Assembly: GCF_046119375.1 (NCBI RefSeq)
Contig: NW_027362769.1
Coordinates: 360,096,001-360,160,000, forward strand
DNA length: 64,000 nt
Direction of reading: 5' to 3'
DNA from: Phyllobates terribilis
Taxonomy: Eukaryota
Position 1 is the stretch's first letter. Each line of letters begins with the position of its first letter. The position numbers were made by a program, and so were the translations under genes. The notes under the pieces were generated by a model, which was not told the origin of the DNA, did not search any database, and was given only the letters and a program-made list of their open reading frames with translations. Positions 1 to 27,785 of this stretch are shown here, one piece after another.

Positions 1-632
1 AGTCTTCATGTAATGTTTGGCCCACTGGAGCCGTTTCTGCTTGTGTGAAGTGGATAGAGGAGGTCGACAGGATGGCGTATGCACAGCTGCAAACCTCTGA
101 AGGACCCTGCATCTTGTTGTTCGGGGGACGTTGGAGGCACCAGCAGCTTCAAAAACTTGTCTGCTGCTATGACAAGGCTTTCTTGCCGCTGCTCTTTTAA
201 CCTGACGTAATTGCCTGTAGGAAAGAGTCCTCAATTTGCCCTTATCAGCAAGCACACGTGTGTACTGTGAATCAGCTACATACTTCTTGATTGCCAAGAC
301 ACTTCATCCTGATCATCGCACAATGTTGATTGTAGTCATGCCTTGACCTAAACACTCCACAATTTGTTGCTTCTCAGCAGCCGACACATCCTTTTTCTTT
401 CCCATTTTGGCAGAAAATGTAGGCTGCTTAATAATGTGAGAGAGCCTTCTTAAGTAGTCTTGCCTTTCATTGGACACACCTGCCAAACTAATTAGCACAG
501 GTGTCTGCAATTGCTTACAGTGATATAAAGAGCCCTGACACACATCACCATCAATGAGTTTAACTGACAAACAAACAAATTCTTCCCTTATCACTCCTAA
601 ACACTTTTTGCATAATAATTTGGAACGCGGTG
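1..632 (-). mobile_element. Tc1/mariner remnant (5' end and terminal repeat)
   Basis: Minus strand starts TA|CACCGCGTTCCAAATTATTATGCA (TA at 633-634). Transposase start MGKKKDVSAAEKQQIVECL is followed by a premature stop. Duplicate of 25035-25666. Confidence 0.85.
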
Positions 633-703
633 TACATGTGCTTTTCCACAAAACACCAGTGGTTCACGTAGTGACTCTTACAGTTCTAACTTGCCAACCG
701 TGG

Positions 704-2530
704 TCTGTATGGAATTGTTCAATAAAGGGCCCAAAATTAAGATAACATAGATGGGAGAGGTCTCTATGAATAGGAATTCCTAAGTATTTGATACCCTGTG
801 AGGGCCAGGCAAAGGGAAAGTTGGACTGGATGGAATCCTATATGGATTTAGGGAGGGAGACATCGAGGGCCTCAGACTTCGCTGCATTGATTTTAAAATT
901 TTACCATGTAACAAAGTGATCTATTTCAGCCATAACAGCAGGGATGGATATATGTGATTGAGTGATATATACTAGGACATCATCAGCAAATAGAGAGCAC
1001 TTGTACTCGGTGCCTCCCACCTCAATCCACCTAATATTGGGGTTATGGCGAATTGATGAAAGCAGGTGCTCCGTCACTAGGATGTATAAGAGAGGGGACA
1101 GAGGACATCCATGCCTTGTCCCATTGGTGATTGTGAAAGGTGATGAAAATGTTCTGACGCACCCCCTGGGCCTTGGGACACCCGGAGCCGGACCCTTTTT
1201 GGTGGATGCTGGTGGTTGTAGTCTTCATGGCGGCGACCCGGTTCCGTGGCTCAGGGCGGTCAAACCAGTGGCGGAACTATTTATGTGGTTTTGATGTTTA
1301 AATGTCCGACTACGCCACCCGTGGTTTGCGGTCAGTGTGAACCGCCGCTACAGGGCAGACCGCTGAGGCTGGTGTTGTGGGTGCAGAAGAGCGTAGCATA
1401 ACTCCCCACGGGAGGAGTATAGCCTCAGGGCAGTGTATGCGGAGGATGGGGGTGATGGTGCAGGGCAGCAGCAGTAACGACACGGAGTCAGTGATGCAGT
1501 CCAGGGCCTTTACTCACAGTTCTTATTATCCAGACCACGTCTGCAGGTAACGGCTGCCCACGTCGTACTGTGCTCACCAGGTGAGGGGCTCAGACAACTC
1601 CCAGATAACTTTGGAGCACTTCACAGGACCCCCTTTGTGTGTCCTTTGTCTGGCCTTTCTTACCAACACTTCTGTCCGGCTGCCTCGGGCCTCCTCTTGG
1701 TAAACTTGGCGCCAGTTTCCCTGACCCTATGTGGTGCCTTCCTAGCGGGTGTAGCGAGGGGCTGCGCCACATAAAATGTCAGAGCCTCCGGTTTCTAGCT
1801 GAGGGTCGTTTCCTGCCTCCACTAGTTCGGGGACCGGTCTCCCCCTTTGGCCTGACCCCTCCACGCAGGTGGATTCGGGCGTGCGGTGGCGACTCGCCCG
1901 TCCGCACCCCTGGGATCCCTTCATTCCTCGTTCCTGGAGCCTTCTCTGCTCCTCTTCCTTCCTTCTCCCTCTTCCAGGCCTGGCCCTCTGTTACTAGGCC
2001 CGCCTCCGGAGCAGAGCTCATGCAGAGCCCCTGCTCCCTGCCACTTCTGCTCAGACTTCTCTGCACTGAACTAAGATGGTGCCCACCTTTTATACTCCCT
2101 TCTCAATGCACCCAGGAACTGCTTCCTCCCTGCTCCTGCACTACAGGGTTCCCCTTCCTCAGTGTTCCCTCCCCCCACTCCAGCCAGGGACAGGGACTGT
2201 CGTGCCCATCTCAGGGGCATATTGGTCGCCCTGCCCCACGGCAATGTGGTGTAATGCATGCAGGTGTCGGGTCCTGATCCACACTCCATCCTTACCTGAG
2301 AGTGAGATATCACACCTCTGGGTGAGGTGCAATACGTCTGTAGCAACCGAGCCCTCAGGGTGCTACAGTTCCATTTATCTTCAGCCTAGGTGACGTATTG
2401 CGATACAGGGCCGTGATTTTGGCTATAAAAGGGTCCCCTAGACCCCTACCCCAAGCTTTTTAAGAGAATCATATATGGCGTGCCAGGAGACTCTATGGAA
2501 TGCTTTCTCAGCATCCAACGAGAGTATCTA
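704..2530 (-). pseudogene. L1/Tx1-type reverse transcriptase fragment, split by a solo LTR
   Basis: Minus-strand motifs SLDAEKAFHRVSW (about 2480-2525) and PRLKING|TFSSPFTITNGTRQGCPLSPLLY...LFADDVLVY (continuing below 1155). The frame rejoins when 1155-2367 and one GTTC are removed. Confidence 0.85.
1155..2367 (-). mobile_element. Solo LTR (gypsy-like by 4-bp TSD)
   Basis: TG...CA ends with a 4-bp duplication GTTC (1151-1154 / 2368-2371). Its minus-strand start TGTAGCACCCTGAGGG resembles the start of the LTR at 8727. Confidence 0.75.
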
Positions 2531-2781
2531 ATTACAAATTTTTAACTGCATCTAGCCCAGGAAATACTTTGTGCCTAGTAGCAGTGTCTGCTAGTCAGCG
2601 GATTATACCGGCTGTTAAGCAAGCTACACCACCTGTAGTTTAGACACTTAATTTTTTCAAAGGAAATGCTTCGGGACCATGGGATACTTAGTGAAGAGCA
2701 TCAGGAGGCACCCCAAGGCATAGGGGCTGGGACTGGCAGTAGGATGCCTTGCGGTGGACAGCCGAGCTCGATCCTTATAAA

Positions 2782-2905
2782 AGCTTTTTAACTGCAGCAG
2801 CTTTAGGGAACGCTACTGGAGCTGGAATTACCGCGGCTGCTGGCATGAGACTTGCCCTCCAATAGATCCTTGTAAATGGATTTAAAGTGTATTCATTCAA
2901 ATTAG
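2782..2905 (-). pseudogene. Decayed 18S rRNA fragment (530-loop region) inside the hAT element
   Basis: Reverse complement contains ATTGGAGGGCAAGTCTCATGCCAGCAGCCGCGGTAATTCCAGCTCCAGTAGCG...GCTGCAGTTAAAAAGCT, roughly 85% similar by eye to vertebrate 18S recalled from memory. No flanking rDNA. Confidence 0.9.
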
Positions 2906-3410
2906 AGAGACAATTTAAATTAAAAAGCTTAGAGCTGCCTCCACCACAGGGGGGCTCGCTCGACCCACCAGTGGACAGGCACCAGTATTGGGAGAGGGGG
3001 ACTGGCCGTCAGGGTTCACCGCGGCTCTGGCACAAACCCGGCGACACGGAGGTGGCACGGGCAGGAGCGGACTGGCCGTGTCGGCTTCTCACTTTTTGGA
3101 TTTTAGAAGGGCATGACATGCCTATATCTGTGTCTCCCCCTCCTTTTACTCCTCCACCTCTTTTATTTTCGCATGACTATATGTACTTTTCACTTTTCCA
3201 TGTGTTAGTTATGTCTTCTAAGCAGTTTGTCAGCTTTTGGACACCTTTGAAGGTGTTTTCTATGTGTTTCTATGTGTTTTTGTTTGCCTGCCATTGGTTT
3301 TAACGGTGTTCGAAGGTGTTCGACGAACAGTTCGACGAACAGTTCGGCGAACACACGGGTGTTCGACGAACCGAACCGAACTCGAACACTACGGGGGTGG
3401 CTCAACACTA

Positions 3411-6400
3411 ATAGGGACATCAGACCGCCCTTACTATTCTTAAAAGGCCAGCAGTTGGCCCTCGCTATTGTTAGAGAGCCGTCAGGTGGCTATGCGTTGT
3501 TGTTCCCATTATTACCAAGTGGGTCTCCTATACTGTTGTTGCGTATCCAGTGACTGCAAGGGCTGCCAAAAATTTGGACGCAATCCAATACCCCTTTGAA
3601 GAGACATAGAGGAGGGTCTCAGTAAAAAAATGTTCCCATTATAAAGGAGCGGGTCTCCTATAGTGGTAATGCCCATGCTGTGACTGCAAGGGCTGCCAAA
3701 ATTTGGGAAAAAACCCTCTAAGAATTTAAAGACACATAGAACAGGGCCACAGTAACGACACATTCCATTTAGATAGGAGAGAGTCTGCTATACAGTTATA
3801 GGTTATGCAGTGAGTCCAATGGCTGACCAATTGTAGGATAAACCCCACTAAGAATTTAAAGACACATAGAGCAGGGCCACAGTAACAAGGTACGACATGT
3901 ATCCATTAGAAAGGAGAGGGTGTGCTATACAGTTATAGGGTATGCAGTGAGTCCAACGGCTGACCAATTTTAAGAAAAAACCCACTAAGAATTTAAAGAC
4001 ACATAGAGCAGTGCCACAGTAATGACAAATTCTCATTAGAAAGGAGAGAGTCTCCCATAGTGTTGGCCTATGCAGTGAATGCAAGGGCTGCCAAAAATTT
4101 GGAGGCACTTCAATGCCCCTTGGAAGAGACGTGGAGGAGGGCCTCATAAAAAAAATGTTCCCTTTAAAATGAAGTGGGCCTCCTATACTTATAATGCCCA
4201 TGCACTAAGTGTATGAGCTGACAAACATTTACCCCTGGGGGGTACACATGAACATACTGTATACATTTTTTTTTTTTTACGGGCATCATAAACACACTTT
4301 AAAAAAATTATGTGGGTGATGCATCACGGACCACGGTCACCCTGGTGATATGGTGGTGGAGGATGAGGATGAAGAGAAGGACAAGAGCAAATAGCCAAAA
4401 TCAGGAAGCGTATACCAATGTGTGGGAAAAGGTGCATGGGAATACACCTCCCAAGAAAAGACACTGGATTTGAGTTTATGTTACGCTGCTATCATTCGGT
4501 GGCGTAGAGTAGTCTTGCCCAATCCATCCCTTGTTTATTTTTATAAGAGTCAACATGTCAGCATTTTCAGTTGACAGGCGGATGCACTTATCAGTTATAA
4601 TTCCACCAGCGGCACTAAAAACCCACTCTGATAAAACGCTGGCGGCAGGGCAGGCCAGGACCTCCAAGGCATAGAGAGCCAGTTCATTCCACGTATCCAG
4701 CTTGGATACCCAATAATTATAAGGCACAGCGGAATCATGGAGGACGTTGGTACGGTCGGCAAGGTACTCCCTCAGCATCTTGCCAAACTTTGCACTCCTT
4801 GTGAGAGTACCCCGCACCTCAGGGCCTGTGCGATGGGAGGGTCTGAGAAAACTCTCCGAGAATTTTGACAGTGTTCCCTGGCCTCTGCTGGATAGGAGTT
4901 GTGTCTCTCTCGCCTGTACTCCTTCGTTGTCCAGCAAAATTTTTTTAATAGTTCCGCAACTAGTGCCTTCTGGTACTGCCCCATTTTTGTAGTCCTGTCC
5001 GCCTCAGGAATAAAAGATATAAAGTTCTCCTTGTAGCGTGGGTCTAGAAGTGTCACCAACCAGTAATGACTGTCACCCAAAATTTTGAGAACGCGAGGGT
5101 CATGGGAAAGGCAGTATAACATAAACTCAGTCATGTGTGCCAGACTACTAACAGGCAAGACTTCCATGTCCTCACCAAGAGGAAGACTGACCATGCTCTC
5201 CTCCTCCTCCTCCTCCTCTCTGTCCTCTGGCCATCCACGCTGAACAGACGGTATTACAGCTGTGCAGGTAGTACAGTCAAGTGCATGAAACTAGCTCCTG
5301 TCCTTCCTCCTCCTCCTCTTCCTCATTGTCACCCAATCCATGTTGGGATGAGATGAGGCTTGGCTGTGTGTAATCACCCTTTATGGTTCCTTGCTCCATC
5401 TCATCGTGCTCTGCCTGCAATGCATCCTCTTTGATTGTGAGCAGAGAGCGCTTCAGAAGACAGAGCAGCGGGATTGTGATGCCAATTATGGCGTCATCGC
5501 CGCTCACCATCTTGGTGGCATCCTCAAAGTTTTGGAGAATTGTACATATGTCTGACATCCATGTCCACTCCTGATATCTTATCTGTGGAGTCTGTACTGA
5601 ATACCGACGGCCTTGTTGATGCTGGTACTCAACAACTGCACTCTTCTGCTCACAAATCCTTCCCAACATCTGCAGTGTAGAGTTACAATGCGTGGGGACA
5701 TCACACACCAGTCTGTGAGCCGGAAGCTGCAAATCCTGCTGAAGCACGGCAAGGGCGGCGGAAGATGTAGCTGACTTTCTAAAATGGGAACACAGGCAGC
5801 ATACTTTGACAAGGAGATCAGGTTGCTCAGGGTAGGATTTGAGAAACCGCTGAACCACGAGGTTAAGCACATGGGCCAGGCATGGTACGTGTGTGAGTTC
5901 GCCTCTCCTCAGATCCGCCACCAGGTTCTGCCAATCTTCACAAACGACCATGCCTGGCTGTAGGTACAGCGATGTGAGTTACAGAATTGCCTGCTCTTTC
6001 AGAGCTGTCCACAACTCTTCAGAATTGTGCGGTTTGTCACCTAAGCATATTAGCTTCAACACAGCCTGTTACCGCTTGGCCGAGGCAGTGCTGCAGTGCT
6101 TCCAGGTTGTGATTGTGACTGATGTGGTAATTTCGGAGATGGAGGCTGAGGTGCATTAGCTGTAGACTGTGGGGGGCAACCCTGAATAATCTAGGACCCG
6201 CGATCCTTGGCGTCGGGAGGACTTGTTCCGTCCCAAGGTCTGACTGGGTCCCGGCTTCCACTATGTAAACCCAGTGTGCTGTCAGCGAGATGTACCGTCC
6301 TTGCCCACAAGCCCTTGTCCACGATTCCGTGGTTAGGTGGACTTTCCTGGTAACTGGGTTGTTGAGGGCACGGCTAATGTTTTGGGACACGTGCTTGTGT

Positions 6401-6549
6401 AATGCGGGGACGGCACACCAGGAGAAATAGTGGCGGATGGAGACCGAGTACCGAGGAACGGCCGCCGCCATCAGGTTGAAGAATGCTTCCGTCTCAACGA
6501 GCCTAAAAGACAACATTTCTAGCTCAAGCAGTCGCAAAATGTGGGACAT
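3411..6549 (-). mobile_element. Decayed hAT element family B, left arm (transposase remnant 4476-6549 plus 3' subterminal region)
   Basis: Frameshifted minus-strand ORFs with VHLTTESWT..GQGRYISLTAHWV, PCLAHVLNL, CDVPTHCNST and CPAASVLSEWVFSAAG. Confidence 0.9.
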
Positions 6550-9500
6550 TACACAAGCACGTGTCCCAAAACATTAGCCGGGCCCTAAACAACGTAGTTA
6601 CCGGGAAAGTCCACCTAACCACGGACACGTGGACAAGTGCTTGTGGGCAGGGACGGTACATCTCGCTGACGGCACACTGAGTTAACATAGTGGAAGTCGT
6701 GACCCAGTCGGACCTTCGAACAGAACACGTCCTTCCAACGCCAAGAATTGCGGGCCCTAAGTCAATCAGAGTTGCCACCACAGTCTACAGCTCCTGCACC
6801 TTATCCTCCTCAGCCTCCTCCTCCTCTTCATCCTCCATCTTCGAAATGACCACATCAGTCACAAGCTGGAAGCACTGCAGCACTGCCTCGGCCAAGCGGC
6901 AACAGGCTGTGCTGAAACCAATATGCTTAGGTGACAAACCGCACAATGCTGAAGAGTTGCGGACAGCTCTTAAAAGCAGGCAGATCAGTGGCTTACACCG
7001 CTGAACCTACAGCCAGGCATGGTCGTGTATGAAATTGGCCGGAACCTAGTGACGGCTCACACACATATCCTGCCTGGCCCATGTGCTTAACCTCGTGGTT
7101 CAGCAGTTTCTCAAATCCTACCTGGAGCTGCCGGATCTGCTTGCTAAAGTATGCCACCTGTGTATCCATTTTAGAAAGTCACCTACAGCTTTCACCGCCC
7201 TTGCCGTGCTTCAGCAGTGTTTGCAACTTCTGGCTCACAGACTGGTGTGTGATGTCCCCACGCATTGGAACGCTACACTGCAGATGTTGGGAAGGATTTG
7301 TGAGCAGAAGAGGGCATTTTTTGAGTACCAGCATCATCAAGGCCGTCGGTATGATGTTCAGACTCCACACATAAGACCTCAGGAGTGGACACGGATGTCA
7401 GACATATGTACCGCCTTCCAAAACTTTGAGGACTCCACCAAGGTGGTGAGCGGCGATGACGCCATAATTACCGTCACCATCCCGCTTTCTGTCTTCTCTC
7501 ACAATCAGAGAGGATGCATTGCAGGTGGAGCACGATGAGATGGATCAAGGAACCATATAGGGTGATTATACACAGCCCAGCCTCATCTCATCCCAACGTG
7601 GATTGGGTGACAATGAGGGAGAGGAGGAGGAGGAGGTAGAACTGGAGCTAGTTTTATGCACTATAGATGGTACTACCAACACAACTGTCATACCGTCTGT
7701 TCAGCGTGGATGGCCTGAGGACAGAGAGGAGGAGGAGGATAGCTTGGTCAGTTGTCGTCTTGGAGAGGACATGGAAGTCTTGCCTGTTATCAGTATGGTA
7801 CACAAGGCTGAGTTTATGTTACGCTGCCTTTCCTGTGACCCTCAGGTTCTCAAAATTTTGGGTGACAGTCATTACTGGTTGGTGACACTGCTAGACCCAC
7901 GCTACAAGGAGAACTTTATATCTCTTATTCCTGAGGCGGACAGGTCTACTAAAATGGGGCTGTACCAGAAGGCCCTTGTTGCGGAGCTATTTCAAAAACT
8001 CCCATCTGAAACCGCTGGCGGCAGAGGTCACAGTTTGTTGGACAACCAAGGAATACAGGCGAGAGAGACACAACTTCAATCCAGCAGAGGCCAGGGAACA
8101 CTGTCAAAGTTCTGAGAGAATTTTCACAGCCCCTCTCATCGCACAGGCCCTGAGGCGTGGGGTACTCTCACAAGGAGTGCAAAGTTTGGCCAGATGCTGA
8201 GGGAGTACCTTGCCAACCGTACCAACGTCCTCCGTGATTCCTCTGTGCCTTATAATTATTGGGTATTCAAGCTGGATACGTGGAATGAACTGGCTCTCTA
8301 TGCCTTGGAGGTCCTGGGCTACCTTGCCGCTAGCGTTTTATCAGAGCGGGTTTTTAGTGCCGCTGGTGGAATTATAACTGATAAGTGCATCCGCCTGTTC
8401 ACTTAAAATGCTGCTGCTTTGTCTTAGCGGGTTTTTAGTGCCGCCGGTGCAATTATAACCGAAACTGAAAATGTTGACATGCTGACTCTTATAGAAATGA
8501 ACATGGGCTGGATTGGGCCCGACTTCTCAACAACACCAGATGATAGCAGCGTAACATAAACTGAAATCCAGTGTCTTTTTTGGGAATTGTATTCCCATGC
8601 ACCTTTTCACACCCACACATGGGTATATGCTTCCTGATTTTGGCTATTTGCTCTTGTCCTCCTCCTTCTCCTCATCCTCATCCTTCACCACCATATCACC
8701 AGGGTGACCGTGGTCCGTTATGCAACTATTGCGCCCCTGAGGGTTCAGTCGCCACAGGGGTACTGCACCTCAGTAGAGGTGTGGCATCTCCTCTTCCAGG
8801 TAAGGATGGAGCACTTCTCAGGACCCTACTTCACCATTCAATACTACACCACTCCTGTCCTGAGGGGGGCTTTAAGGCACCGGGGTGCTGACCCAGCCGG
8901 GATAGAGGAGATGAGGGGTACCAAAGATAGGGAGAACAATGTAGTGGGTGAGGGTGGAGGACACACTTTTAGGATGCACTAATGGCATCATATATAATCT
9001 TCAGCCATCTTAAGTTCAAGGTCTTTGATTGTGATCTTCATCACTGAACGTGGCTTTCTGTTAGAGCCTGCAGCTGATTGGAGATACACGGTCCTCATGC
9101 TCTGGCCTTGAGACGAGGAGCGGGCTAGAGTTAACCGCTGTCTCTACCCGGTCAATGTCCCTACTTAAGAAGGCCTGGAGGGGAGCGGAGGAGACAAGCT
9201 CCACAGGCAAAAGGATCCCAGGGGGATGTGGACGGAGCGGCATACGCCACCTGCTACCTTCATTCTGGCCTAGTCAGAGGGACTCCTGCTGCAAGAGGGG
9301 TGACCGGCCCCCGATATCTGACTGTGTACTTCACGTCACTTTTGGAAAATCCTGGCTGCTTAGTGGATCCCGGAGGGGGACACAAGCGGGAGGAGTAGGA
9401 GAAAGTGAGGGAGAAGGAGAGGAACACACCAACGGGGTCTTGACAGGTGCTTTTGATCTATCTGGAAAGTGCTGGACCCCCTTCCCGGTGGCCGCAGCAC

Positions 9501-13135: not shown

Positions 13136-13244
13136 GATGTCTGCTGAATGCCCCTCATTACCAGCTCCCCTTTGACAACTCCTCCTGTCAGGGGAGAAAG
13201 AAATCGGTAAATGGGCGTGTATTGGTGTGTGGCCAAAATTTGCC

Positions 13245-13936
13245 TGCTCTTTATACTGTAAATGCTGCTCTATATACTGTATATACTGCTCTATATACTG
13301 TACACACTGATCTATACACTGTATATACTGCTCTATATACTATACACACTCTCTACATACTGTACACATTGCTCTATATACTGTCTGTGCACACTGAACT
13401 ATATACTGTAAAGACTGTTCTATATACTGTACATACTGCTCTATATACTGTAAAGATTGTTCTATATACTGTACATACTGCTCTATATACTATACACACT
13501 CTCTACATACTGTACACATTGCTCTATATACTGTCTGTGCACACTGAACTATATACTGTAAAGACTGTTCTATATACTGTACACACTGAACTATATACTG
13601 TACACACTGCTCTATATACTGTACACGCTGCTCTATATATTGTATAGGCTGCTCTATATACTGTACATGCTGCTCTATATACTGTACACACTGCTCTATA
13701 TATTGTACAGGCTGCTCTATATACTGTACATGCTGCTCTATATACTGTACATGCTGCTCTATATACTGTACACACTGAACTACAGTATATACTGTACAGA
13801 CTGCTATATATACTGTACACACTGCTGTATATACTGTACACTCTGCTCTATATACTGTACAGGCTGCTCTATATACTGTACACACTGCTCTATATACTGT
13901 ACAGGCAGCTCTATATATATTGTACACGTTGCTCTA
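13245..13936 (-). repeat. 21-bp minisatellite, about 33 copies, inverse orientation of the 50882-64000 satellite
   Basis: Unit TATATACTGTACACACTGCTC is the reverse complement of GAGCAGTGTGTACAGTATATA. Confidence 0.95.
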
Positions 13937-14151
13937 TTATCTGGGACATCTATAAGGCTGCTGATCTGGGCTGTACAGATGTTGTGTTGGGGATGAGTCG
14001 CATTGTGAAGCTGGCGCCTTATCAGAGCTCTTCCCTCCATTACCTGCCGCAGCGTCACAGCTTCACACAGGGTCAGACACGATATTACATAGGTGATTGC
14101 AATCAGCCCCCTATGTGGATACGTGTTCACCCCCCAATACTCTGCACATTC

Positions 14152-14594: not shown

Positions 14595-14685
14595 GGCGGG
14601 GCCTGTGCTCAGTGTCAGCCAATAGATGCTCAGGACGGTGCAGATCAGCAGCCAATCAGTGCGCAGTAAGCCTGTACATATAACA
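14595..14685 (+). promoter_or_regulatory. Histone H1 proximal promoter
   Basis: GGCGGG box near 14596, CCAAT boxes near 14619 and 14652, TATA-like TACATATAA near 14674, about 75 bp before the ATG. Confidence 0.6.
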
Positions 14686-14754
14686 GGCGCCTCCAGCTCC
14701 GGCCTCAGTGTTTTCCTATCAGGAGATATTTGTGTTCTAGTTCCGCAGCACACG

Positions 14755-15462
14755 ATGGCCGAGACCGCACCAGCCGCCGCTCCCCCTCCCGCAGAACCGG
14801 CCGCCAAATCCAAGAAACAGCCGAAGAAATCCGCCGCCGGGGGCGCCAAGAAAAGCAAGAAACCCTCCGGTCCCAGCGTCGCCGATCTGATCGTGAAAGC
14901 CGTGTCCGCCTCTAAGGAGCGCAGTGGGGTGTCTCTGGCCGCCCTGAAGAAGGCTCTGTCTGCCGGAGGATACGATGTAGAGAAGAACAATAGCCGCCTG
15001 AAGCTGGCCGTCAAGTCTCTGGTCACCAAGGGCGCCCTCCTCCAGGTGAAGGGCAGCGGCGCCTCCGGGTCCTTCAAGCTGAACAAGAAGCAGCAGGAGA
15101 CTAAGGACAAAGCGGCCAAGAAGAAGTCAGCAGCTGCGGCCAAGCCCAAGAAACCCGCTGCAGCCAAGAAAGCCGCCAAGTCTCCTAAGAAGCCCAAGAA
15201 GGCTCCGACCGCTGCCAAGAAGAGCCCGAAAAAGGCCAAGAAGCCCGCAGCAGCTGCCAAGAAGGCGGCCAAGAGCCCCAAGAAGCCAAAGGCCGCTCCG
15301 AAGCCCAAGAAGGTGACGAAGAGTCCGGCTAAGAAAGCGACCAAGCCCAAAGCTGCCAAGAGTCCTGCTAAGAAGGCGGCTAAAGCCAAGAAAGCCACCA
15401 CCTTGTCCGCTTCAGAGCTGTATGATCAGAGCCACCACCTTGTCCCCTTCCGAGCTGTATGA
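14755..15462 (+). CDS. H1: Linker histone H1 with truncated C-terminus fused to satellite (214 native aa plus 21 satellite-encoded aa); probably non-functional or misprocessed
   Basis: MAETAPAA start, globular domain [21 protein letters not shown]...[13 protein letters not shown] and KSPKK-rich tail. Native sequence stops at 15396 and continues [21 protein letters not shown]. No histone stem-loop follows. Confidence 0.93.
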
Positions 15463-15914
15463 TCAGAGCCACCACCTTGTCCCCTTCTGAGCTGTATGAT
15501 CAGAGCTACCACCTTGTCCCCTTCAGAGCTGTATGATCAGATCCACCACCTTGTCCCCTTCAGAGCTGTATGATCAGATCCACCACCTTGCCCCCTTCCG
15601 AGCTGTATGATCAGAGCTACCACCTTGTCCCCGGCAGAGCTGTATGATCAGTGCCACCACCTTGTCCCCGGCAGAGCTGTATGATCAGTGCCACCACCTT
15701 GTCCCCGGCAGAGCTGTATGATCAGAGCCACCTCCTTGTCCCCTGCAGAGCTGTATTATCAGTGCCATCATCTTGTCCCCTGCAGAGCTGTATGATCAAT
15801 GCCACCACCTTGTCCCCACCAGAGCTGTATAAGTGCCACCACCTTGTCCCCGGCAGAGCTGTATGATCAGAGCCACCACCTTGTCCCCTGCAGAGCTGTA
15901 TGATCAGTGCCACC
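15394..15914 (+). repeat. 37-bp HDE-derived satellite, H1-proximal block (about 14 units)
   Basis: Unit GCCACCACCTTGTCCCC(TT/TG/GG)CAGAGCTGTATGATCAG(A/T). Confidence 0.95.
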
Positions 15915-16820
15915 TAGAGATGAGCGTTGTTCTACTCGAACTGTTCGCCAATCTCAAATTCGAGCTGTTTTGGGCGGTGTTCGAGCCGGTCGGCGAACAC
16001 GAACAATTTGAGAAAAATTCGGCTGTTCGAGGTTATGTTCGATAACTGTTCGTGCACCAAAATCATAACTGGATTTTTTCTCAGTAATGATGAAAATTAA
16101 TGTTAATACGCAGTTTGAGTGTACAGCGGGGCAGGGGATGGATCTCTGCAGGAACAATGAAGATCTCCATTTTTTTTTCTCTTTCCCGCATTTGCAGTGG
16201 GGAGGTGCAATCTGTCAGCCTATCAGCAGCGCACACACGGAGCGAAGTGCTTTTTTTCACACAAGCAAGGGCATGTGTGATTGGCAGTGTATGTCACATG
16301 TCCTTGCCCTATAAGACCAAGCCATTTTCCCCGTCGCCACCATTTTCTCACTGCTGCAGCTGCGTGTTAGACGGCACCGCTGTTGCTGTGTGCGCTATAC
16401 CTTGTTAATTTCAAGCCAATTTTCGCACAAATATACAGATAGCTTGGGAGTAGGGAATAGTTGTGATTGCAGTCCTTTTAAGGACTAGGTTACAGCATTT
16501 CCTACGACTTTTATCAGGCAGGTCTGTGCTCTTAAATAGATAGATTGTGGGAGTAAAGACTAATTGTAATTGGAGTCCTTTTCAGGACTAGGTTACATCA
16601 GTTCCTATCAGTTTTTGCCAGGCAGGTCTGTGCCAGTGCTGTGCAAGTTTTTTTCACAGCATTTGGCTGAATCTAGCAAAGCTAATCCTTTTTGGCCTAT
16701 TGCAGAGTGTGTTAGTCAGTGGAGTAGCCTATCTGTGTTGCAAGATATACCACCTGTGTATAGAATACCAATTTTTTTACTGCACCTAGTGAAGTAAAAT
16801 CTTTTGGGCATAGCATCATT

Positions 16821-19800
16821 CTATTAGTCCATCTATACTGACCTCCATCAGGTTGCAAACTGAATATAATTTTTTTCTGCATCTAGCTCTGAAAAAATAT
16901 TTGGGCTTCTAGCGGTGTGTGGGACTTGGTCTATTAGTCCATCTATACTGACCTCCATCAGGTTGCAAATTAAAAATAATTTTTTTCTGCATCTAGCTCT
17001 GAAAAAATATTTGGGCTTCTAGCAGTGTGTGGGACTTGGTCTATTAGTCCATCTATACTGACCTCCATCAGGTTGCAAATTAAAAATAATTTTTTTCTGC
17101 ATCTAGCTCTGAAAAAATATTTGGGCTTCTAGCAGTGTGTGGGACTTGGTCTATTAGTCCATCTATACTGACCTCCATCAGGTTGCAAATTAAAAATATT
17201 TTTTTTCTTCATTTATCTCTGAAAAAATATTTGGGCTTCTAGCAGCGTGTGGGACTTGTTCTATTAGTCCATCTATACTGACCTCCATCAGGTTGCAAAT
17301 TAAAAATAATTTTTTTCTGCATGTAGCTCTGAAAAAATATTTGGGCTTCTAGCAGTGTGTGGGATTTGGTCTATTAGTCCAGCTATACTGACCTCCATCA
17401 GGTTGCAAATTAAAAATAATTTTTTTCTTCATTTATCTCTGAAAAAATATTTGGCCTTCTAGCAGTGTGTGGGACTTGGTCTATTAGTCCAGCTATACTG
17501 ACCTCCATCAGGTTGCAAATTAAAAATAATTTTTTTCTGCATCTAGCTCTGAAAAAATATTTGGGCTTCTAGCAGTGTGTGGGATTTGGTCTATTAGTAC
17601 ATCTATACTGACGTCCATCAGGTTGCAAATTGAATAAAAAAAATTTCTGCATCTAGCTCTGAAAAAATATTTGGGCTTCTAGCAGTGTGTGGGACTTGGT
17701 CTATTAGTCCATCTATACTGACCTCCATCAGGTTGCAAATTGAATAAAAAAAATTTCTGCATCTAGCTCTGAAAAAATATTTGGGCTTCTAGCGGTGTGT
17801 GGGACTTGGTCTATTAGTCCATCTATACTGACCTCCATCAGGTTGCAAATTAAAAATAATTTTTTTCTGCATCTAGCTCTAAAAAAATATTTGGGCTTCT
17901 AGCAGTGTGTGGGACTTGGTCTATTAGTCCATCTATACTGACCTCCATCAGGTTGCAAATTAAAAATAATTTTTTTCTGCATCTAGCTCTGAAAAAATAT
18001 TTGGGCTTCTAGCAGTGTGTGGGACTTGGTCTATTAGTCCATCTATACTGACCTCCATCAGGTTGCAAATTAAAAATATTTTTTTTCTGCATCTAGCTCT
18101 GAAAAAATATTTGGGCTTCTAGCAGTGTGTGGGACTTGGTCTATTAGTCCATCTATACTGACCTCCATCAGGTTGCAAATTAAAAATAATTTTTTTCTGC
18201 ATCTAGCTCTGAAAAAATATTTGGGCTTCTAGCAGTGTGTGGGACTTGGTCTATTAGTCCATCTATACTGACCTCCATCAGGTTGCAAATTAAAAATATT
18301 TTTTTTCTTCATTTATCTCTGAAAAAATATTTGGGCTTCTAGCAGCGTGTGGGACTTGTTCTATTAGTCCATCTATACTGACCTCCATCAGGTTGCAAAT
18401 TAAAAATAATTTTTTTCTGCATGTAGCTCTGAAAAAATATTTGGGCTTCTAGCAGTGTGTGGGACTTGGTCTATTAGTCCATCTATACTGACCTCCAGCA
18501 GGTTGCAAATTAAAAATAATTTTTTTCTGCATCTAGCTCTGAAAAAATATTTGGGCTTCTAGCAGTGTGTGGGACTTGGTCTATTAGTACATCTATACTG
18601 ACGTCCATCAGGTTGCAAATTGAATAAAAAAAATTTCTGCATCTAGCTCTGAAAAAATATTTGGGCTTCTAGCAGTGTGTGGGACTTGGTCTATTAGTCC
18701 ATCTATACTGACCTCCATCAGGTTGCAAATTGAATAAAAAAAATTTCTGCATCTAGCTCTGAAAAAATATTTGGGCTTCTAGCGGTGTGTGGGACTTGGT
18801 CTATTAGTCCATCTATACTGACCTCCATCAGGTTGCAAATTAAAAATAATTTTTTTCTGCATCTAGCTCTGAAAAAATATTTGGGCTTCTAGCAGTGTGT
18901 GGGACTTGGTCTATTAGTCCATCTATACTGACCTCCATCAGGTTGCAAATTAAAAATAATTTTTTTCTGCATCTAGCTCTGAAAAAATATTTGGGCTTCT
19001 AGCAGTGTGTGGGACTTGGTCTATTAGTCCATCTATACTGACCTCCATCAGGTTGCAAATTAAAAATAATTTTTTTCTGCATCTAGCTCTGAAAAAATAT
19101 TTGGGCTTCTAGCAGTGTGTGGGACTTGGTCTATTAGTCCATCTATACTGACCTCCATCAGGTTGCAAATTAAAAATAATTTTTTTCTGCATCTAGCTCT
19201 GAAAAAATATTTGGGCTTCTAGCAGTGTGTGGGACTTGGTCTATTAGTCCATCTATACTGACCTCCATCAGGTTGCAAATTAAAAATATTTTTTTTCTTC
19301 ATTTATCTCTGAAAAAATATTTGGGCTTCTAGCAGCGTGTGGGACTTGTTCTATTAGTCCATCTATACTGACCTCCATCAGGTTGCAAATTAAAAATAAT
19401 TTTTTTCTGCATGTAGCTCTGAAAAAATATTTGGGCTTCTAGCAGTGTGTGGGACTTGGTCTATTAGTCCAGCTATACTGACCTCCATCAGGTTGCAAAT
19501 TAAAAATAATTTTTTTCTGCATCTAGCTCTGAAAAAATATTTGGGCTTCTAGCAGTGTGTGGGATTTGGTCTATTAGTACATCTATACTGACGTCCATCA
19601 GGTTGCAAATTGAATAAAAAAAATTTCTGCATCTAGCTCTGAAAAAATATTTGGGCTTCTAGCAGTGTGTGGGACTTGGTCTATTAGTCCATCTATACTG
19701 ACCTCCATCAGGTTGCAAATTGAATAAAAAAAATTTCTGCATCTAGCTCTGAAAAAATATTTGGGCTTCTAGCGGTGTGTGGGACTTGGTCTATTAGTCC

Positions 19801-20187
19801 ATCTATACTGACCTCCATCAGGTTGCAAATTAAAAATAATTTTTTTCTGCATCTAGCTCTGAAAAAATATTTGGGCTTCTAGCAGTGTGTGGGACTTGGT
19901 CTATTAGTCCATCTATACTGACCTCCATCAGGTTGCAAATTAAAAATAATTTTTTTCTGCATCTAGCTCTGAAAAAATATTTGGGCTTCTAGCAGTGTGT
20001 GGGACTTGGTCTATTAGTCCATCTATACTGACCTCCATCAGGTTGCAAATTAAAAATAATTTTTTTCTTCATTTATCTCTGAAAAAATATTTGGGCTTCT
20101 AGCAGCGTGTGGGACTTGTTCTATTAGTCCATCTATACTGACCTCCATCAGGTTGCAAATTAAAAATAATTTTTTTCTGCATCTAGC
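16821..20187 (+). repeat. 110-bp tandem array inside the hAT (30.6 units, 990-bp higher-order repeat)
   Basis: CTATTAGTCC recurs in exact 110-bp register from 16821 to 20121. Variant ACGTCCATCA at 17611, 18601 and 19591. Confidence 0.97.
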
Positions 20188-20301
20188 CCAGCCAATAGTT
20201 TTGGCCTAATACCACAGTTTGGCCACTCAGCTCTGCTCGGTTACCATCCATTGTTTTTTTGTGCAAACAACTCCAGAGTTGTGAATTAGTTAACCACCAA
20301 A

Positions 20302-23300
20302 ATGAGTGGAAAAAGGCCTGCTGCTGGTGGAAAGGGGAATAGGCGTGTTGGGAAGGGGAAAAAAGGTTGTGTCCGTGGGGTAGGTGCAGAAGAAAGACCA
20401 TCTTCCAGCCAAACTAAAATGTCTACTTCTTTTAGCGGACAATGTGATAAGATCCCTTTCTTACGGCCACGCCAATCGCTACAAATTCCAGATGAGGCAC
20501 AAAAACAGCAGGTGCTTCAACGGATATCAAGTGCTCCTTTAAGTGCGCTCTCCTCCACATCAACTTCAACATCACAAATACTCCAGTTCTCAAAGGTGTC
20601 ACCCAAATCGCACTTGCTTCCTCACAGCTCCCAAATCTCCAGCTGCCCGTCTGAGTATGAGGTAGAACAGATGGTTGAGTCTGCAGAGCTGTTTACTCAT
20701 ACTATAGCCTGGGAATCAGAGGTCGACTCCAGCGCTTCTGTGAATCCAGACGAGGAAATGATCTGCACTGATGCCCTGAATCTTTATGAGTCGGATCCAG
20801 GACCAGACGCAGAAGGTTCTGACCATAATGTAGACCCTCATTCCCAAACTGTAACTCCTGTTGGTGGAGACAATGAGGAAGACGATGATAAGACTCAAAT
20901 ACCTGATTGGAGCGACAACTTTAGTTTTTTGTCAGGGCAGGAACAGGTTGGCTCTGAGGACGACGGGTGTGATAACGCACAGGGTGATGATGATGAGGTC
21001 GGAGATCCCACTTACTGTCAACCCACAGTCAGCCAAGAGATGAGGTCAGCAGAGGAGGTGGAGGAAGATGCTAGTGACGACGAGGTCAGGTTGCGCCTTC
21101 CTGGACAGAGACGTAGTACTGGAAGCACGTCAACAATTGCATCCTCAAACACAACTCTGCCTCTCACCACAAGTCGTGGTGGCTCTTCAGGTCGCATGGG
21201 TGCTAAGCCTTGCATAGCCTGGGCATTTTTTCAGATCGAAAAAGATGACCCAACTCGTGTTATCTGTAACATTTGTCAGCAAAAGCTAAGTAGAGGCCAA
21301 AAAATACATAGTTTGAGTACTTCATGCATGAACCGGCACATGGACATGAAGCATAAGTTGCAGTGGGAAGCTCAGTGTGCTACAATGCGGCCTAGCCGGC
21401 CGGGCCAATCACCGTCTGCCATATCTTGTGCATCCGCGGCCTCTTCATCCTCTGTGACTGGGGGGACAGCAGTCACACCTGTTTTGGGGCGCAGACCTGC
21501 CACCTCTTTACCCGCAACAGCCAGCGTGATTGGCAGGTCATCATTTTCTTTGGAGGTGGTAACACCAGCTGGTGTTGAGCGCTGTCCGACATCGATAGCA
21601 CCACCTTTGGATCAAGGCAACCTAACATGTCCGCCTGCATCTTCCTCACAGACCGGCAGTTTGCCGGGGACACCCTTATCAACCCCGTCTAAGCACAATA
21701 GCCAGCCCTCAGTCCCTCAGATGTGGACAAGTAAAAGACCATTTCCTCCTAGCCATGAGAAAGCTAAGAGGTTGAATTTCACCATCTGCAAGCTCTTGGC
21801 TACAGAAATGCTGCCTTTCCGCCTGGTGGACACAGAGGATTTTCGAGACCTTATGTCCGTCGCAGTGCCCCAGTACCAGATGCCCAGTCGGCACTACTTC
21901 TCAAAGAAAGGTGTGCCTGCGCTCCACCAGCATGTCGCACACAACATCACCGCTTCTTTGAGAAACTCTGTGTGTGACAGGGTGCATTTCACCACAGACA
22001 CTTGGACGAGTAGGCATGGACAGGGGCGTTACATGTCGCTGACTGGGCACTGGGTAACTATGGTGACAGCAGGACAAGGGGCTGCTGTCCAAGTCTTGCC
22101 GTCCCCACGAGTTGTGCGTCAATCCTCTTTATGTCAAAGTTCCTCCACTGCTTCTGCCTCCTCAACCTCCTCTCGGTCTTCCACCTGCACCCAAAGCCTG
22201 TCTGGTCATGCCACAAGCTTTCTAACTGCGCAGAAGGGATCCTGCACACCTCCTTACTATGCTGGCAGTAGGGCTCAACGTCATCAGGCGGTTTTTACAT
22301 TGAAATGTCTGGGAAATGTGAGTCACACAGCTGAGGAGTTGTGGTCAGCTCTGGAGAACCAATTTCATGAATGGTTGTCTCCACTGGACCTGAAACCAGG
22401 GAAGGCCGTGTGCGACAATGCTGCAAACCTGGGTGCGGCCCTTCGCCGGGGCAATGTCACACACGTGCCTTGTATGGCTCACGTGTTGAACCTGGTTGTC
22501 CAGCAATTTTTAGCCCACTATCCCAGACTAGATGGCCTTCTGCAGAGGGCACGGTCGCTGTGTGCTCACTTCCGCCGTTCGCATCCCGCAGCTCAGCGAC
22601 TTACATCTCTACAGAAGTCGTTGGGCCTGCCACTTCACCGGCTAAAATGCGATGTGCCTACCCGGTGGAATTCAACTCTGCACATGTTGCAGCGACTGTG
22701 GCAGCACCGACAAGCCCTGGTGCAATACGTTCTGACGTATAGCCTGGGCCAACGAGATTCAGAGGTGGGGCAAATCACGCTGGAGGAGTGGTCTCAGATC
22801 AGGAACCTATGCACCCTTCTGCACAGTTTTGAAATGGCGACGAAGATGTTTAGTGCTGACGATGCCATTATCAGCATGACTATTCCGGTGATTTACATGC
22901 TGGAGCACATGTTAAACAGAATTCGGAGTCAGGTGGTGGCACAAGAGGAGGTGGAGGAAGTAGAGGAGGAGGAGTTGTATGCGGAAGGGCTAACATCTGC
23001 AAGGTCCAGACGGTCGGCAGCACCAAGGCGGCAGGCATGTGAGAGTGGGGGAGATGGTTTTACCAGGGCGCATGGTAGCAGCCAAACTAGTGAGGAAGGT
23101 GCAGGAGCCCAAGAAGAAGTGGAGGACGAACTGATGGAAGACTCATCAGATGAGGGAGACCTTGATCACATTTCTGTTGTGCGAGGTTGGGGGGAGAGGA
23201 CAGAGGAAGGAAGCATGATTGTTACCTCGCCACCAACACAACAGGGACTTGGTGCTCCTGGATGCGCAACACACATGAGTGCCTTCTTGCTGCACTACCT

Positions 23301-23967
23301 GCAACATGACCCTCGAATTGTGAGAATTAGAAATAATCCTGACTACTGGGTTGCCACACTGTTAGATCCCCGGTACAAAAGTAAATTTGCAGAAATTATT
23401 CCTGCCATAGAAAGGGATGCACGCATGCAGGAGTATCAGCAGAGACTGTTGCAGAATCTTACATGTGCTTTTCCACAAAATACCAGTGGTGCACGTAGTG
23501 AATCTCACAGTTCCAACTTGCCAACCGTGGGACCGTCAAGTGTTCAGCACTCAAACCGTAACAGAACCACAGTATCTGCTGGTAACATCAATTTTGCGGA
23601 ATCATTTCACCACTTTTTTAGCCCACAGGAGACAAGAAGTCTGACACATAGTCAACGCCTAGAGACGATGGTACAGGAGTATCTCCAAGTAAACATTGAA
23701 GCCGCGACTGTGTCACTGGACCCTTGCTCTTTTTGGGCTTCCAATCTGGATAAATGGCCGGAGCTAGCCACTTACGCCTTGGAGATCTTGTCATGCCCCG
23801 CAGCCAGCGTTCTGTCTGAACGTGTGTTCAGCGCTGCTGGTGGTGTGCTGACAGATAAGCGCACGCGGCTCTCCACTGATAATGTAGACAGACTCACGTT
23901 CATAAAGATGAACAAATCATGGATCCGAAACGACTTTTCTACCCCTGTGTCATCCTGGGGAGAGTAA
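20302..23967 (+). CDS. hAT-family transposase, 1221 aa, uninterrupted ORF
   Basis: BED finger (AWAFF...CNIC...MNRHMDMKH), FTTDTWTS, VCDNAAN, PCMAH (CxxH), DVPTRWNST, and SERVFSAAG in the C-terminal dimerisation region. Confidence 0.95.
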   Translation: MSGKRPAAGGKGNRRVGKGKKGCVRGVGAEERPSSSQTKMSTSFSGQCDKIPFLRPRQSLQIPDEAQKQQVLQRISSAPLSALSSTSTSTSQILQFSKVSPKSHLLPHSSQISSCPSEYEVEQMVESAELFTHTIAWESEVDSSASVNPDEEMICTDALNLYESDPGPDAEGSDHNVDPHSQTVTPVGGDNEEDDDKTQIPDWSDNFSFLSGQEQVGSEDDGCDNAQGDDDEVGDPTYCQPTVSQEMRSAEEVEEDASDDEVRLRLPGQRRSTGSTSTIASSNTTLPLTTSRGGSSGRMGAKPCIAWAFFQIEKDDPTRVICNICQQKLSRGQKIHSLSTSCMNRHMDMKHKLQWEAQCATMRPSRPGQSPSAISCASAASSSSVTGGTAVTPVLGRRPATSLPATASVIGRSSFSLEVVTPAGVERCPTSIAPPLDQGNLTCPPASSSQTGSLPGTPLSTPSKHNSQPSVPQMWTSKRPFPPSHEKAKRLNFTICKLLATEMLPFRLVDTEDFRDLMSVAVPQYQMPSRHYFSKKGVPALHQHVAHNITASLRNSVCDRVHFTTDTWTSRHGQGRYMSLTGHWVTMVTAGQGAAVQVLPSPRVVRQSSLCQSSSTASASSTSSRSSTCTQSLSGHATSFLTAQKGSCTPPYYAGSRAQRHQAVFTLKCLGNVSHTAEELWSALENQFHEWLSPLDLKPGKAVCDNAANLGAALRRGNVTHVPCMAHVLNLVVQQFLAHYPRLDGLLQRARSLCAHFRRSHPAAQRLTSLQKSLGLPLHRLKCDVPTRWNSTLHMLQRLWQHRQALVQYVLTYSLGQRDSEVGQITLEEWSQIRNLCTLLHSFEMATKMFSADDAIISMTIPVIYMLEHMLNRIRSQVVAQEEVEEVEEEELYAEGLTSARSRRSAAPRRQACESGGDGFTRAHGSSQTSEEGAGAQEEVEDELMEDSSDEGDLDHISVVRGWGERTEEGSMIVTSPPTQQGLGAPGCATHMSAFLLHYLQHDPRIVRIRNNPDYWVATLLDPRYKSKFAEIIPAIERDARMQEYQQRLLQNLTCAFPQNTSGARSESHSSNLPTVGPSSVQHSNRNRTTVSAGNINFAESFHHFFSPQETRSLTHSQRLETMVQEYLQVNIEAATVSLDPCSFWASNLDKWPELATYALEILSCPAASVLSERVFSAAGGVLTDKRTRLSTDNVDRLTFIKMNKSWIRNDFSTPVSSWGE

Positions 23968-24179
23968 AAGCTTGATGATTGGTTAAAATCACCCTACCAA
24001 CCGTTTTAAGCTTTCAAATTACTAATCATGTTTATCTGTATCTTGACTGGAAAATAATTTGGGCTTTGTAGCAGTGTGCAGCACTGATCCTATTAGGCCA
24101 TCTATAATAAGCTTCACCAGATTTAAAATTAAAAATAATTTTTAGCTGCATCTAGCCCGGAAAATAATTTTGGGGCTCC

Positions 24180-25737
24180 GAGATGCGCAAGACACATAAG
24201 TGCCTTCTTGCTGCACTACCTGCAGCATGACCCTCATATTGTCAGAATTCGAAGTAATCATGACTACTGGGTTGCCACACTCTTAGATCCCCCAAACTTT
24301 TCGATCAACCTTTTCATTTTAATAAAGACCAAAAAAATGGTCATTTTTGAAATTATAAGCATTAGCAGGTTGTTAGAAACTGAAATCAAACAGTTTTCAA
24401 CTCAAAACTTTATTCTAGGTGATGTTACATTTTCACATAGGACCCCTTGTTCGAAAGGAGCTTCTGAACTCTCTCGTCCATTGAATTTGTCAGGTTTTGG
24501 ATGGTTTCTGCTTCAATTGTTTTGCATGAGGACAGAATACCCTCCCAGAGCTGTTGCTTAGATGTGAACTGCCTCCCGCCATCATAGACACTCCTTTTAA
24601 TGATGCTCCAAAGGTTCTGAATGGGGTAGAGGTCAGGGGAGCATGGGGGTCACACCATAAGTTTGTCCCCTTTTATGCCCATATCAGCCAGAGATGCAGA
24701 TGTTTTATGTGCAGCATGAGATGGTGCATTATCATGCAGAAAAATGATCTTGCTGTGAAATACACGGTTCTTCTTCTTGAACCATGGCAGGAAGTGCTGT
24801 TTGAGAAAATCCACATACATTATGGAGTTCATCTTTAGCGCCTTCAGGGATCCTAAAGGGGCCGACAATCTCTCTCCCCATGATTCCAGCCCAAAACATT
24901 ACTCCACCTCCTCCTTGTTGGCGCTGTAGCAGTGTTTGCGTGGGGTGTCCATCAACCAGCCATCCTCCACTCCATTCATCTGGACCATCGAGCGCTGCAC
25001 GGCACTCATCCGTGAACAAAACAGTTTTGAAATCAGTCTTCATGTTATGTTTGGCCCACTGGAGCCGTTTCTGCTTGTGTGAAGTGGATAGAGGAGGTCG
25101 ACAGGATGGCATATGCACAGCTGCAAACCTCTGAAGGACCCTGCATCTTGTTGTTCGGGGGACGTTGGAGGCACAAGCAGCTTCAAAAACTTGTCTGCTG
25201 TTATGACAAGGCTTTTTTGCCGCTGCTGTTTCAACCTGACGTAATTGCCTGTAGGAAAGAGTCCTCAATTTGCCCTTATCAGCACGCACACGTGTGTACT
25301 GTGAATCAGCTACATACTTCTTGATTGCCAAGACACTTCATCCTGATCATCGCACAATGTTGATTGTAGTCATGCCTTGACCTAAACACTCCACAATTTG
25401 TTGCTTCTCAGCAGCCGACACATCCTTTTTCTTTCCCATTTTGGCAGAAAATGTAGGCTGCTTAATAATGTGAGAGAGCCTTCTTAAGTAGTCTTGCCTT
25501 TCATTGGACACACCTGCCAAACTAATTAGCACAGGTGTCTGCAATTGCTTACAGTGATATAAAGAGCCCTGACACACATCACCATCAATGAGTTTAACTG
25601 ACAAACAAACAAATTCTTCCCTTATCACTCCTAAACACTTTTTGCATAATAATTTGGAACGCGGTGTACATGTGCTTTTCCACAAAACACCAGTGGTTCA
25701 CGTAGTGAATCTTACAGTTCTAACTTGCCAACCGTGG
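24180..25737 (+). pseudogene. Second hAT transposase fragment (about 24180-24292 and 25667-25737) split by a Tc1
   Basis: LHYLQHDPHIVRIRSNHDYWVATLLDP matches 23290-23370. TACATGTGCTTTTCCACAAAA matches 23460 onward. About 90 bp of hAT and one Tc1 end are missing at the left junction. Confidence 0.85.
24293..25666 (-). mobile_element. Decayed Tc1/mariner element (transposase remnant 24425-25439)
   Basis: VLFTDECR, FLHDNAPSH and PCSPDLYPIQNLW (catalytic E replaced by Q), with stops and frameshifts. One terminus, followed by TA at 25667-25668. Confidence 0.9.
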
Positions 25738-27411: not shown

Positions 27412-27663
27412 ACTTACAAATTTTTAACTGCATCTAGCCCAGGAAATACTTTGTGCCTAGTAGCAGTGTCTGCTAGTCAGTGGATTATCCCGGCTGTTAA
27501 GCAAGCTACACCACCTGTAGTTTGGACACTTAATTTTTTCAAAGGAAATGCTTCGGGACCACGGGATACTTAGTGAAGAGCATCAGGAGGCACCCCAAGG
27601 CATAGGGGCTGGGACTGGCACTAGGATGCCTTGCGGTGGACAGCCGAGCTCGATCCTTATAAA

Positions 27664-27785
27664 AGCTTTTTAACTGCAGCAGCTTTAGTGGACGCTACTG
27701 GAGCTGGAATTACGCGGCTGCTGGCATGAGACTTGCCCTCCAATAGATCCTTGTAAATGGATTTAAAGTGTATTCATTCAAATTA
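27664..27785 (-). pseudogene. Decayed 18S rRNA fragment (copy of 2782-2905)
   Basis: AGCTTTTTAACTGCAGC...GGAGCTGGAATTACGCGGCTGCTGGCA...CTTGCCCTCCAAT, with one base fewer than copy 1 in the conserved CCGCGG. Confidence 0.88.

Follow-up and report, generated by a model that had tools for sequence, protein, structure and literature searches.

A composite hAT transposon of Phyllobates terribilis that has moved with nested transposon debris and an 18S ribosomal RNA piece as cargo

A 64,000-nucleotide stretch of the Phyllobates terribilis genome (contig NW_027362769.1, positions 360,096,001 to 360,160,000; hereafter the window, G000:C9:360096001-360160000 within the 10.57-Gb assembly) contains two copies of a composite hAT transposon that has moved as a whole, carrying other elements nested inside it. 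This is shown by separate target duplications, intact transposase frames, identical nested junctions and the existence of forms that are free of one passenger or another. From the left, the element comprises its left end, a 110-bp satellite that differs in length between copies, a transposase gene in one exon, at least one unit resembling the 110-bp repeat, a sister-hAT fragment split by a Tc1-type element, an L1 reverse-transcriptase fragment split by a solo long terminal repeat (LTR), a minus-strand piece of 18S ribosomal RNA (rRNA) and the right end. A preliminary description of the window had reported this nested stack at two sites, and that observation is confirmed, on a far larger scale than was first claimed. 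We consider it very probable that the copies represent an autonomous hAT family that acquired its load stepwise.

Alignment of the window with itself pairs positions 1-3410 (copy 1) with 25035-28291 (copy 2) at about 98.5% identity, with 49 mismatches, eight of them in the first 300 bp as originally counted, and with gaps of 150 bp (1510-1659), 2 bp and 1 bp. The 150-bp gap, also noticed at the outset, reflects a deletion peculiar to copy 2: the other nine copies compared contain the segment. Homology stops at the shared right end, GCTCAACACTA, and the flanks of copy 1 and copy 2 have no homology in common over the 2 kb compared on each side, which bears out their description as unrelated. A left terminus predicted about 9 kb upstream was located at G000:C9:360088362, 7,639 bases ahead of the window, where ATAGGGAC is followed by TAGAGATGAGC exactly as foretold; copy 1 is thus 11,049 bp in whole length, and its host site is another hAT. 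Together with the separate 8-bp duplications of the sampled copies described below, this left end sustains the initial proposal that the element transposed as a unit with its own transposase. An origin of the two copies by segmental duplication or assembly artefact, already disputed in the preliminary description, is exceedingly improbable: identity of 98.5% within 25 kb, beside long satellites, is in its favor, but homology goes no further than the terminal repeats, both copies have 8-bp duplications of their own and unrelated flanks, copies are dispersed in the tens of thousands, and contigs assembled from other organisms run across the same junctions.

The extent of the family is evident from counts of exact matches on both strands of the assembly, for which reversed-pattern controls all gave zero. 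The junction of hAT fragment and Tc1 occurs 49,449 times, the L1/LTR junction 31,104 times, the LTR-empty site 4,209 times and the empty 18S site 61,017 times, while the right end, which includes other families with the same end, has 82,235 matches. Within the initial 16 Mb of contig C1, a right end lies no more than 15 kb from 30 of 33 junctions, and copies measure 9.3-12.1 kb (mean 10.8 kb; 13 copies). If all 49,449 were full-length they would amount to 0.54 Gb, or 5.1% of the genome, an estimate in which exact matching undercounts and truncated copies overcount. The junction search and tabulation of duplications recommended earlier therefore upheld movement of the cargo with distinct duplications, for a family of tens of thousands rather than two. 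Average density is one copy per 214 kb, at which a neighbor within 25 kb has an 11-21% chance; because the family is so numerous, the occurrence of two copies 25 kb apart can be ascribed to chance, and no meaning attaches to transposition "twice within 25 kb". A local hop from copy 1 to copy 2 was considered and rejected, as the two are not sisters on either the transposase or the Tc1 tree. Using a borrowed Xenopus rate of about 3.1e-9 (PMC9250109), a young burst would date roughly to 1.4 million years and an LTR-free wave to about 5 million years.

Right ends lacking an exact junction number 41 in the first 16 Mb of C1, and the 40 that were fetched comprise 18 cargo-bearing copies, 14 members of a palindromic non-autonomous family, six of a sister lineage and two copies with Tx1 inserts (discussed below). 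The palindromic family (L022, L024, L031, L036-L042, L044, L049, L057, L059) is 4-6 kb long and has extended inverted repeats in its interior as well as 200-bp tandem units; it has only the outer 148 and 199 bp in common with the element, and duplications were seen in L036 and L037. The sister lineage (L021, L034, L046, L052, L055, L060, L126) has transposases 86-89% alike and other cargo. In six of its copies the transposase is inverted at a common breakpoint, so that the inverted form must itself have spread.

Features of the ends and of the transposase are those of a hAT. The element has terminal inverted repeats (TIRs) of 11 bp, which match at nine of 11 positions. Twenty copies, picked by position from 31 having both the hAT-fragment/Tc1 junction and a right end, differ by 0.8% pairwise; 13 of the 16 with both ends are bounded by perfect 8-bp duplications, every one different. 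Among 31 duplications, 28 have T in the second position and 28 have A in the seventh, a preference (nTnnnnAn) identical to the target pattern given for Hermes (PMC10368747). The copy 2 transposase matches zf-BED and Dimer_Tnp_hAT in Pfam, and its best match among solved structures is Hermes (E 1e-19). It also has the motifs D..D..E, CxxH and RW. A frame of at least 1210 amino acids with all five motifs persists in seven of the 20 sampled copies. Transposase changes common to at least three of 40 copies have a ratio of nonsynonymous to synonymous change (pN/pS) of 0.42, versus 0.93 for private changes (Fisher p 0.006), indicating purification, while the corresponding values for the Tc1 passenger are 0.70 and 0.88 (p 0.56; 45 copies), with no purifying signal. 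The 8-bp duplications, short TIRs, transposase domains and target preference, all read from sequence, support assignment of the element as a putative autonomous hAT with Ac-group features.

The modules of the cargo are individually recognizable. The L1 fragment is identified as RVT_1 by Pfam and the 18S piece as Rfam RF01960 (E 2e-17), whereas the Tc1-type fragment matches HTH_Tnp_Tc3_2 only at E 0.003, under the curated cut-off. The carried fragment of sister-hAT transposase is 89-94% alike to the transposases compared, and the solo LTR has 68-79% similarity to LTRs in loci that were fetched, one of these LTRs flanking a pol frame with reverse transcriptase, RNase H and integrase in Gypsy order. 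Beside the 18S part is a GC-rich piece (window about 2930-3090 and 27840-27934), matched by very deep, loose-ended contigs in three other organisms; it may be one more captured repeat.

Two of these modules have the marks of nested insertions: the Tc1-type element sits at a TA, and the LTR has a 4-bp duplication (GTTC) and known empty sites. All 20 LTR-empty sites fetched fall in hAT copies and show a single GTTC. LTR-free copies are 3.1% apart, compared with 1.0% among LTR-bearing ones, and copies are arranged in the same old-to-young ladder on the transposase and Tc1 trees. Probable earlier states are represented outside the main lineage. Locus L126, of the sister lineage, has a longer L1 and the 18S piece with no Tc1, hAT fragment or LTR; contigs of organisms D and E carry a longer L1 with the same left edge as L126 and no LTR, and a contig of E is continuous through the LTR site. 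Tc1 depth in D and E is about ten times transposase depth, as a free family would give, contig depth being only a hint. In organism C a single contig links the second hAT piece, by way of the LTR, with the right end; organism B has both forms.

From these comparisons we infer a cargo order of L1 and 18S pieces, then the hAT fragment with its Tc1, then the LTR. The 110-bp satellite, the 18S piece and a longer L1 fragment, common to sister lineages and two more distant organisms, would have come first; the sister-hAT fragment holding Tc1 would then have joined, trimming the L1 by about 150 bp; and a Gypsy-type solo LTR would finally have landed in the L1 piece, producing the version responsible for the latest burst. 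The element's own gene would repeatedly have recombined with the carried hAT fragment, deleting Tc1 and the end of the gene and generating non-autonomous forms. Passengers were thus likely added singly in an actively copying lineage and multiplied with each jump. A hAT transposase requires only the element ends, and the load rides free; copy number would rise via cut-and-paste during replication and gap repair. Older sister hATs (L142, L145, L162, L165, L166, L168; 85-89%) have a 110-bp array immediately ahead of their 18S piece, and in three of them the 18S letters are nearer the Rfam consensus, so that the piece is old in the hAT clade.

A quite different history, in which a single capture event brought in all the cargo as an old genomic block, by gap filling or template switching, and the shorter forms represent later losses, seems to us improbable, although such a mode has been put forward for Pack-TIRs as well as for hobo_AC. 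It would accommodate L1 and 18S pieces without insertion marks, a joint between hAT fragment and L1 that resembles a template switch, and Tc1-free forms that are indeed derived; block capture is also favored by the authors of PMC3014272 for hobo_AC, a lizard element considered below. However, LTR-free copies with a clean single GTTC exist in thousands and are older (3.1% versus 1.0%), and both L1 and 18S occur, with neither Tc1 nor LTR, in sister lineages and in organisms D and E. For single steps, namely entry of the L1 and of the hAT fragment with its Tc1, block capture is likely.

Several points weigh against a stepwise-loaded family that spreads as intact units. Flanks do not match in three of the 16 copies with both ends, and for four of the 20 sampled copies, which have large inserts or a truncation, the DNA fetched contains no left end; recombination between copies is therefore acting besides transposition. 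All samples, except the copies compared at the left-end check, come from the start of one contig (C1), a region of lower-than-average copy density. Both trees have a root placed manually on an LTR-free copy and carry no support values, and so alone do not fix the order, while data from other organisms consist of collapsed contigs, none of which spans the element. A pre-Tc1 ancestor, in which the hAT fragment is uninterrupted, was sought among 3,233 Tc1-free matches, and none of the 20 fetched is a direct ancestor. Lastly, neither duplication nor tail was found at the ends of the L1 and 18S pieces. Each of the 20 Tc1-free copies arose by a deletion that joins the element's own gene to the carried fragment, with the LTR kept; the four with both ends all have duplications. 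L061, L065 and L097 have intact ends and non-matching flanks that nevertheless each fit the target pattern, as inter-copy recombination would leave, and family copies are nested in or beside their own kind at C7:346.4 Mb, C3:311.0 Mb, L117 and L133.

The carried passengers are, to judge from their sequence, dead. The possibility that Tc1 was intact in older copies was rejected, since its frame stops at 262 amino acids, at the same place, in eight of 20 LTR-free copies; it is shorter or missing in the other 12 and frameshifted in young copies. Frames of 321-374 amino acids are stop-to-stop lengths, and the 15,624 free Tc1 ends counted are mostly hAT-borne and hence uninformative. These findings bear on the idea that passengers were kept as helpful (the LTR or Tc1 as promoter, the 18S piece as RNA signal), so that elements with the full load displaced less burdened ones. 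The form with the heaviest load is indeed the most numerous (31,104 versus 4,209), but a Tc1 frame already stopped in LTR-free copies and devoid of purifying signal, the spread of Tc1-free forms as well (3,233), and a single founder lineage sufficient to account for the counts render selection for the cargo unlikely.

The 18S piece has a second association with mobile elements. Four copies, met by chance, have long inserts at one place within it. The insert at L051 encodes ZCCHC3-type RNA-binding domains (ORF1), Exo_endo_phos (APE), RVT_1 and zf-RVT and has no LTR; from their likeness, we presume these inserts to belong to the Tx1 clade of retrotransposons. The 3' junction of the insert occurs at 608 sites (about 1% of sites), with the hAT-type letter in 99 of the first 100. 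Of the occupied sites, which were retrieved through a search for this junction, 20 of 20 fetched have a Tx1-like element at one and the same base, and with L051 these elements form nine groups by unrelated 3' ends, in hosts that are LTR-free, LTR-bearing or of the sister lineage; one 99%-identical group is present in different host sub-lineages. The 18S piece is therefore likely a specific target of several Tx1-clade families. It is unlikely that the hAT merely copied a few Tx1 insertions made without site-specific targeting: some inserts are 93-99% alike and composite Tx1 forms are known in Xenopus (PMC1950540, PMC4494074), yet nine groups with unrelated 3' ends share one base, one group crosses host sub-lineages at 99% identity, and nine founder events at a single base would still require targeting. 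Neither true ribosomal DNA (rDNA) arrays nor a parental rDNA locus was found in the searchable assembly G000, which has only seven true-18S-type motifs (three of four fetched being hAT-borne); all four T-type occupied sites are likewise hAT-borne.

A 1-bp deletion at the Tx1 landing site is present at 47,042 sites, about 77% of 61,017, an approximate share as the patterns differ; it is absent from copy 1 and present in copy 2. Among 24 occupied sites, 19 are readable on the far side, of which 11 are clearly and five probably undeleted, three ambiguous and none clearly deleted. In older LTR-free copies, nine of 19 empty sites are deleted (about 50%), and 16 of 19 undeleted occupied sites against that expectation gives p 0.002, a value to be read knowing that insertions of one family are non-independent and that the Tx1 wave may predate the deletion. 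Escape of the hAT from Tx1 through this deletion is a lead only. Tentatively, and with the balance of our judgment against it, one may imagine a three-layer parasite, in which the hAT spread an 18S scrap to about 61,000 sites, thereby multiplying the habitat of 18S-specific Tx1 elements, then escaped them by the 1-bp deletion (about 77% of sites) and reached some 5% of the genome within a few million years.

A cargo-laden autonomous hAT is a known kind, with a close precedent in hobo_AC of Anolis carolinensis, described as an autonomous hAT of 9-15 kb with 290 copies and embedded fragments of other elements (PMC3014272). The present element belongs with it in being apparently autonomous, 9.3-12.1 kb long, and furnished with embedded fragments whose junctions are common to many copies. 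Both have 11-bp terminal repeats starting TAG, 8-bp duplications (NTRNNYAN-type in hobo_AC) and low divergence (1.1% there), along with inter-copy recombinants, non-autonomous partners with the same ends and carried transposon fragments (PMC3014272). The hobo_AC terminal repeat is TAGGCTTGMTC, as against TAGAGATGAGC here, and the likeness is otherwise by description (PMC3014272). Differences lie in copy number (at least 49,449 versus 290, or 170-fold), nested insertions with dated empty-site intermediates, the internal satellite and an rRNA piece occupied by other elements.

The label "Pack-type" applied in the preliminary description is only loosely apt, insofar as a terminal-repeat element carries captured sequence to new sites with distinct duplications, as Pack-TIRs do (PMC8277862), but the cargo is transposon debris and an old 18S piece, with no host gene fragment, which places the element nearer hobo_AC. 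Pack-TIRs carry host gene pieces and are non-autonomous or relics, and multicopy cases such as Pack-hAT-N8_XT are rare, with four reported and three copies in that example, versus an apparently autonomous element in tens of thousands here (PMC8277862). Insertions of Tx1L in Tx1D of Xenopus laevis and of Tx1-Mar in Mariner-N4_AMi (PMC4494074, PMC1950540) similarly place Tx1-clade elements at one site within a DNA transposon; the target here differs in being an 18S-derived piece in a hAT, used by about nine groups, and 18S is not named among Tx1 targets in the portions of those two papers considered. With Hermes and Ac-group hATs the element shares a BED-finger transposase, imperfect terminal repeats and nTnnnnAn targets (PMC10368747), its protein being twice, and the element four times, as long as in Hermes. 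Xenopus hAT-10-like transposases reach hundreds of copies in frogs and a salamander (PMC9250109). In other superfamilies, wheat CACTA elements are likewise DNA transposons of large size and account for a substantial fraction of a giant genome (PMC4290129), and fungal Starships likewise ferry other transposons, with live passengers in place of the seemingly dead ones here (PMC13004909). No description of the present family or of 18S-targeting Tx1 elements was found in the literature, a weak blank confined to main texts and exclusive of Repbase and Dfam. What is new is the scale, the survival of intermediates both in this genome and in other organisms, and a landing site of rRNA origin that many groups of retrotransposons use.

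Features of both copies are collected in Table 1. Elsewhere in the window, the older hAT hosting copy 1 (4320-8724) contains some 2 kb of sequence duplicated in inverted orientation, with 85% identity. The 3' end of a linker histone H1 frame (Pfam Linker_histone) passes directly into a 37-bp satellite of about 320 units, which starts with the gene's own last codons (14671-15914 and 28292-39479); this array is the insertion site of copy 2. A 21/42/63-bp satellite extends over at least 13 kb (50882-63996), with a 0.7-kb inverted outlier 37 kb off at 13244-13937.

Table 1. Components of the two composite hAT copies, numbered from the first base of the window
Feature	Position	Strand	Remarks
Copy 1, right part of composite hAT	1-3410	+	left end 7,639 bases before window; transposase frame broken after about 609 amino acids
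Copy 1, dead Tc1-type passenger, 5' part	1-632	-	sole remaining end; TA next at 633-634
Copy 1, sister-hAT transposase fragment, second piece	633-703	+	93% to element's own gene
Copy 1, L1 reverse-transcriptase fragment left of LTR	708-1154	-	
Copy 1, solo LTR	1155-2367		1213 bp; TG..CA ends, GTTC duplication
Copy 1, L1 fragment right of LTR	2368-2531	-	
Copy 1, decayed 18S rRNA piece	2700-2930	-	Rfam core 2810-2930; Tx1 landing site near 2826 undeleted
Copy 1, right TIR (3400-3410) and target duplication ATAGGGAC (3411-3418)	3400-3418	+	inside another hAT
Copy 2, target duplication GTGCCACC (15907-15914) and left TIR TAGAGATGAGC (15915-15925)	15907-15925	+	
Copy 2, whole element	15915-28291		between two GTGCCACC (perfect 8-bp duplication), in 37-bp satellite
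Copy 2, internal 110-bp satellite	16820-20187	+	30.6 units; length varies among copies
Copy 2, intact single-exon hAT transposase	20302-23967	+	1221 amino acids; zf-BED, D..D..E, CxxH and RW, dimerisation domain
Copy 2, sister-hAT transposase fragment, first piece	24170-24289	+	89% to own gene, 93% to sister lineage
Copy 2, Tc1-type passenger	24290-25666	-	one end lost, frame broken
Copy 2, second hAT piece	25667-25737		
Copy 2, L1 fragment	about 25742-26188 and 27250-27410		split by solo LTR
Copy 2, solo LTR	26189-27249		carries private 150-bp deletion
Copy 2, 18S piece	27580-27811	-	Tx1 landing site with common 1-bp deletion
Copy 2, right TIR (28281-28291) and target duplication GTGCCACC (28292-28299)	28281-28299	+	inside 37-bp satellite

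A single DNA-transposon family thus adds about 0.5 Gb to this genome. Some 4 kb of each copy would be annotated as Tc1, L1, LTR or rRNA, inflating the apparent recent activity of retrotransposons, and studies of genome size, such as PMC12822217, are the kind possibly concerned. With thousands of copies preserved at each stage, the order and pace of cargo gain become directly measurable, and the 18S site offers a countable natural test of target specificity and escape. From a more practical perspective, an intact hAT that has moved loads of 11-12 kb tens of thousands of times is a candidate large-cargo vector.

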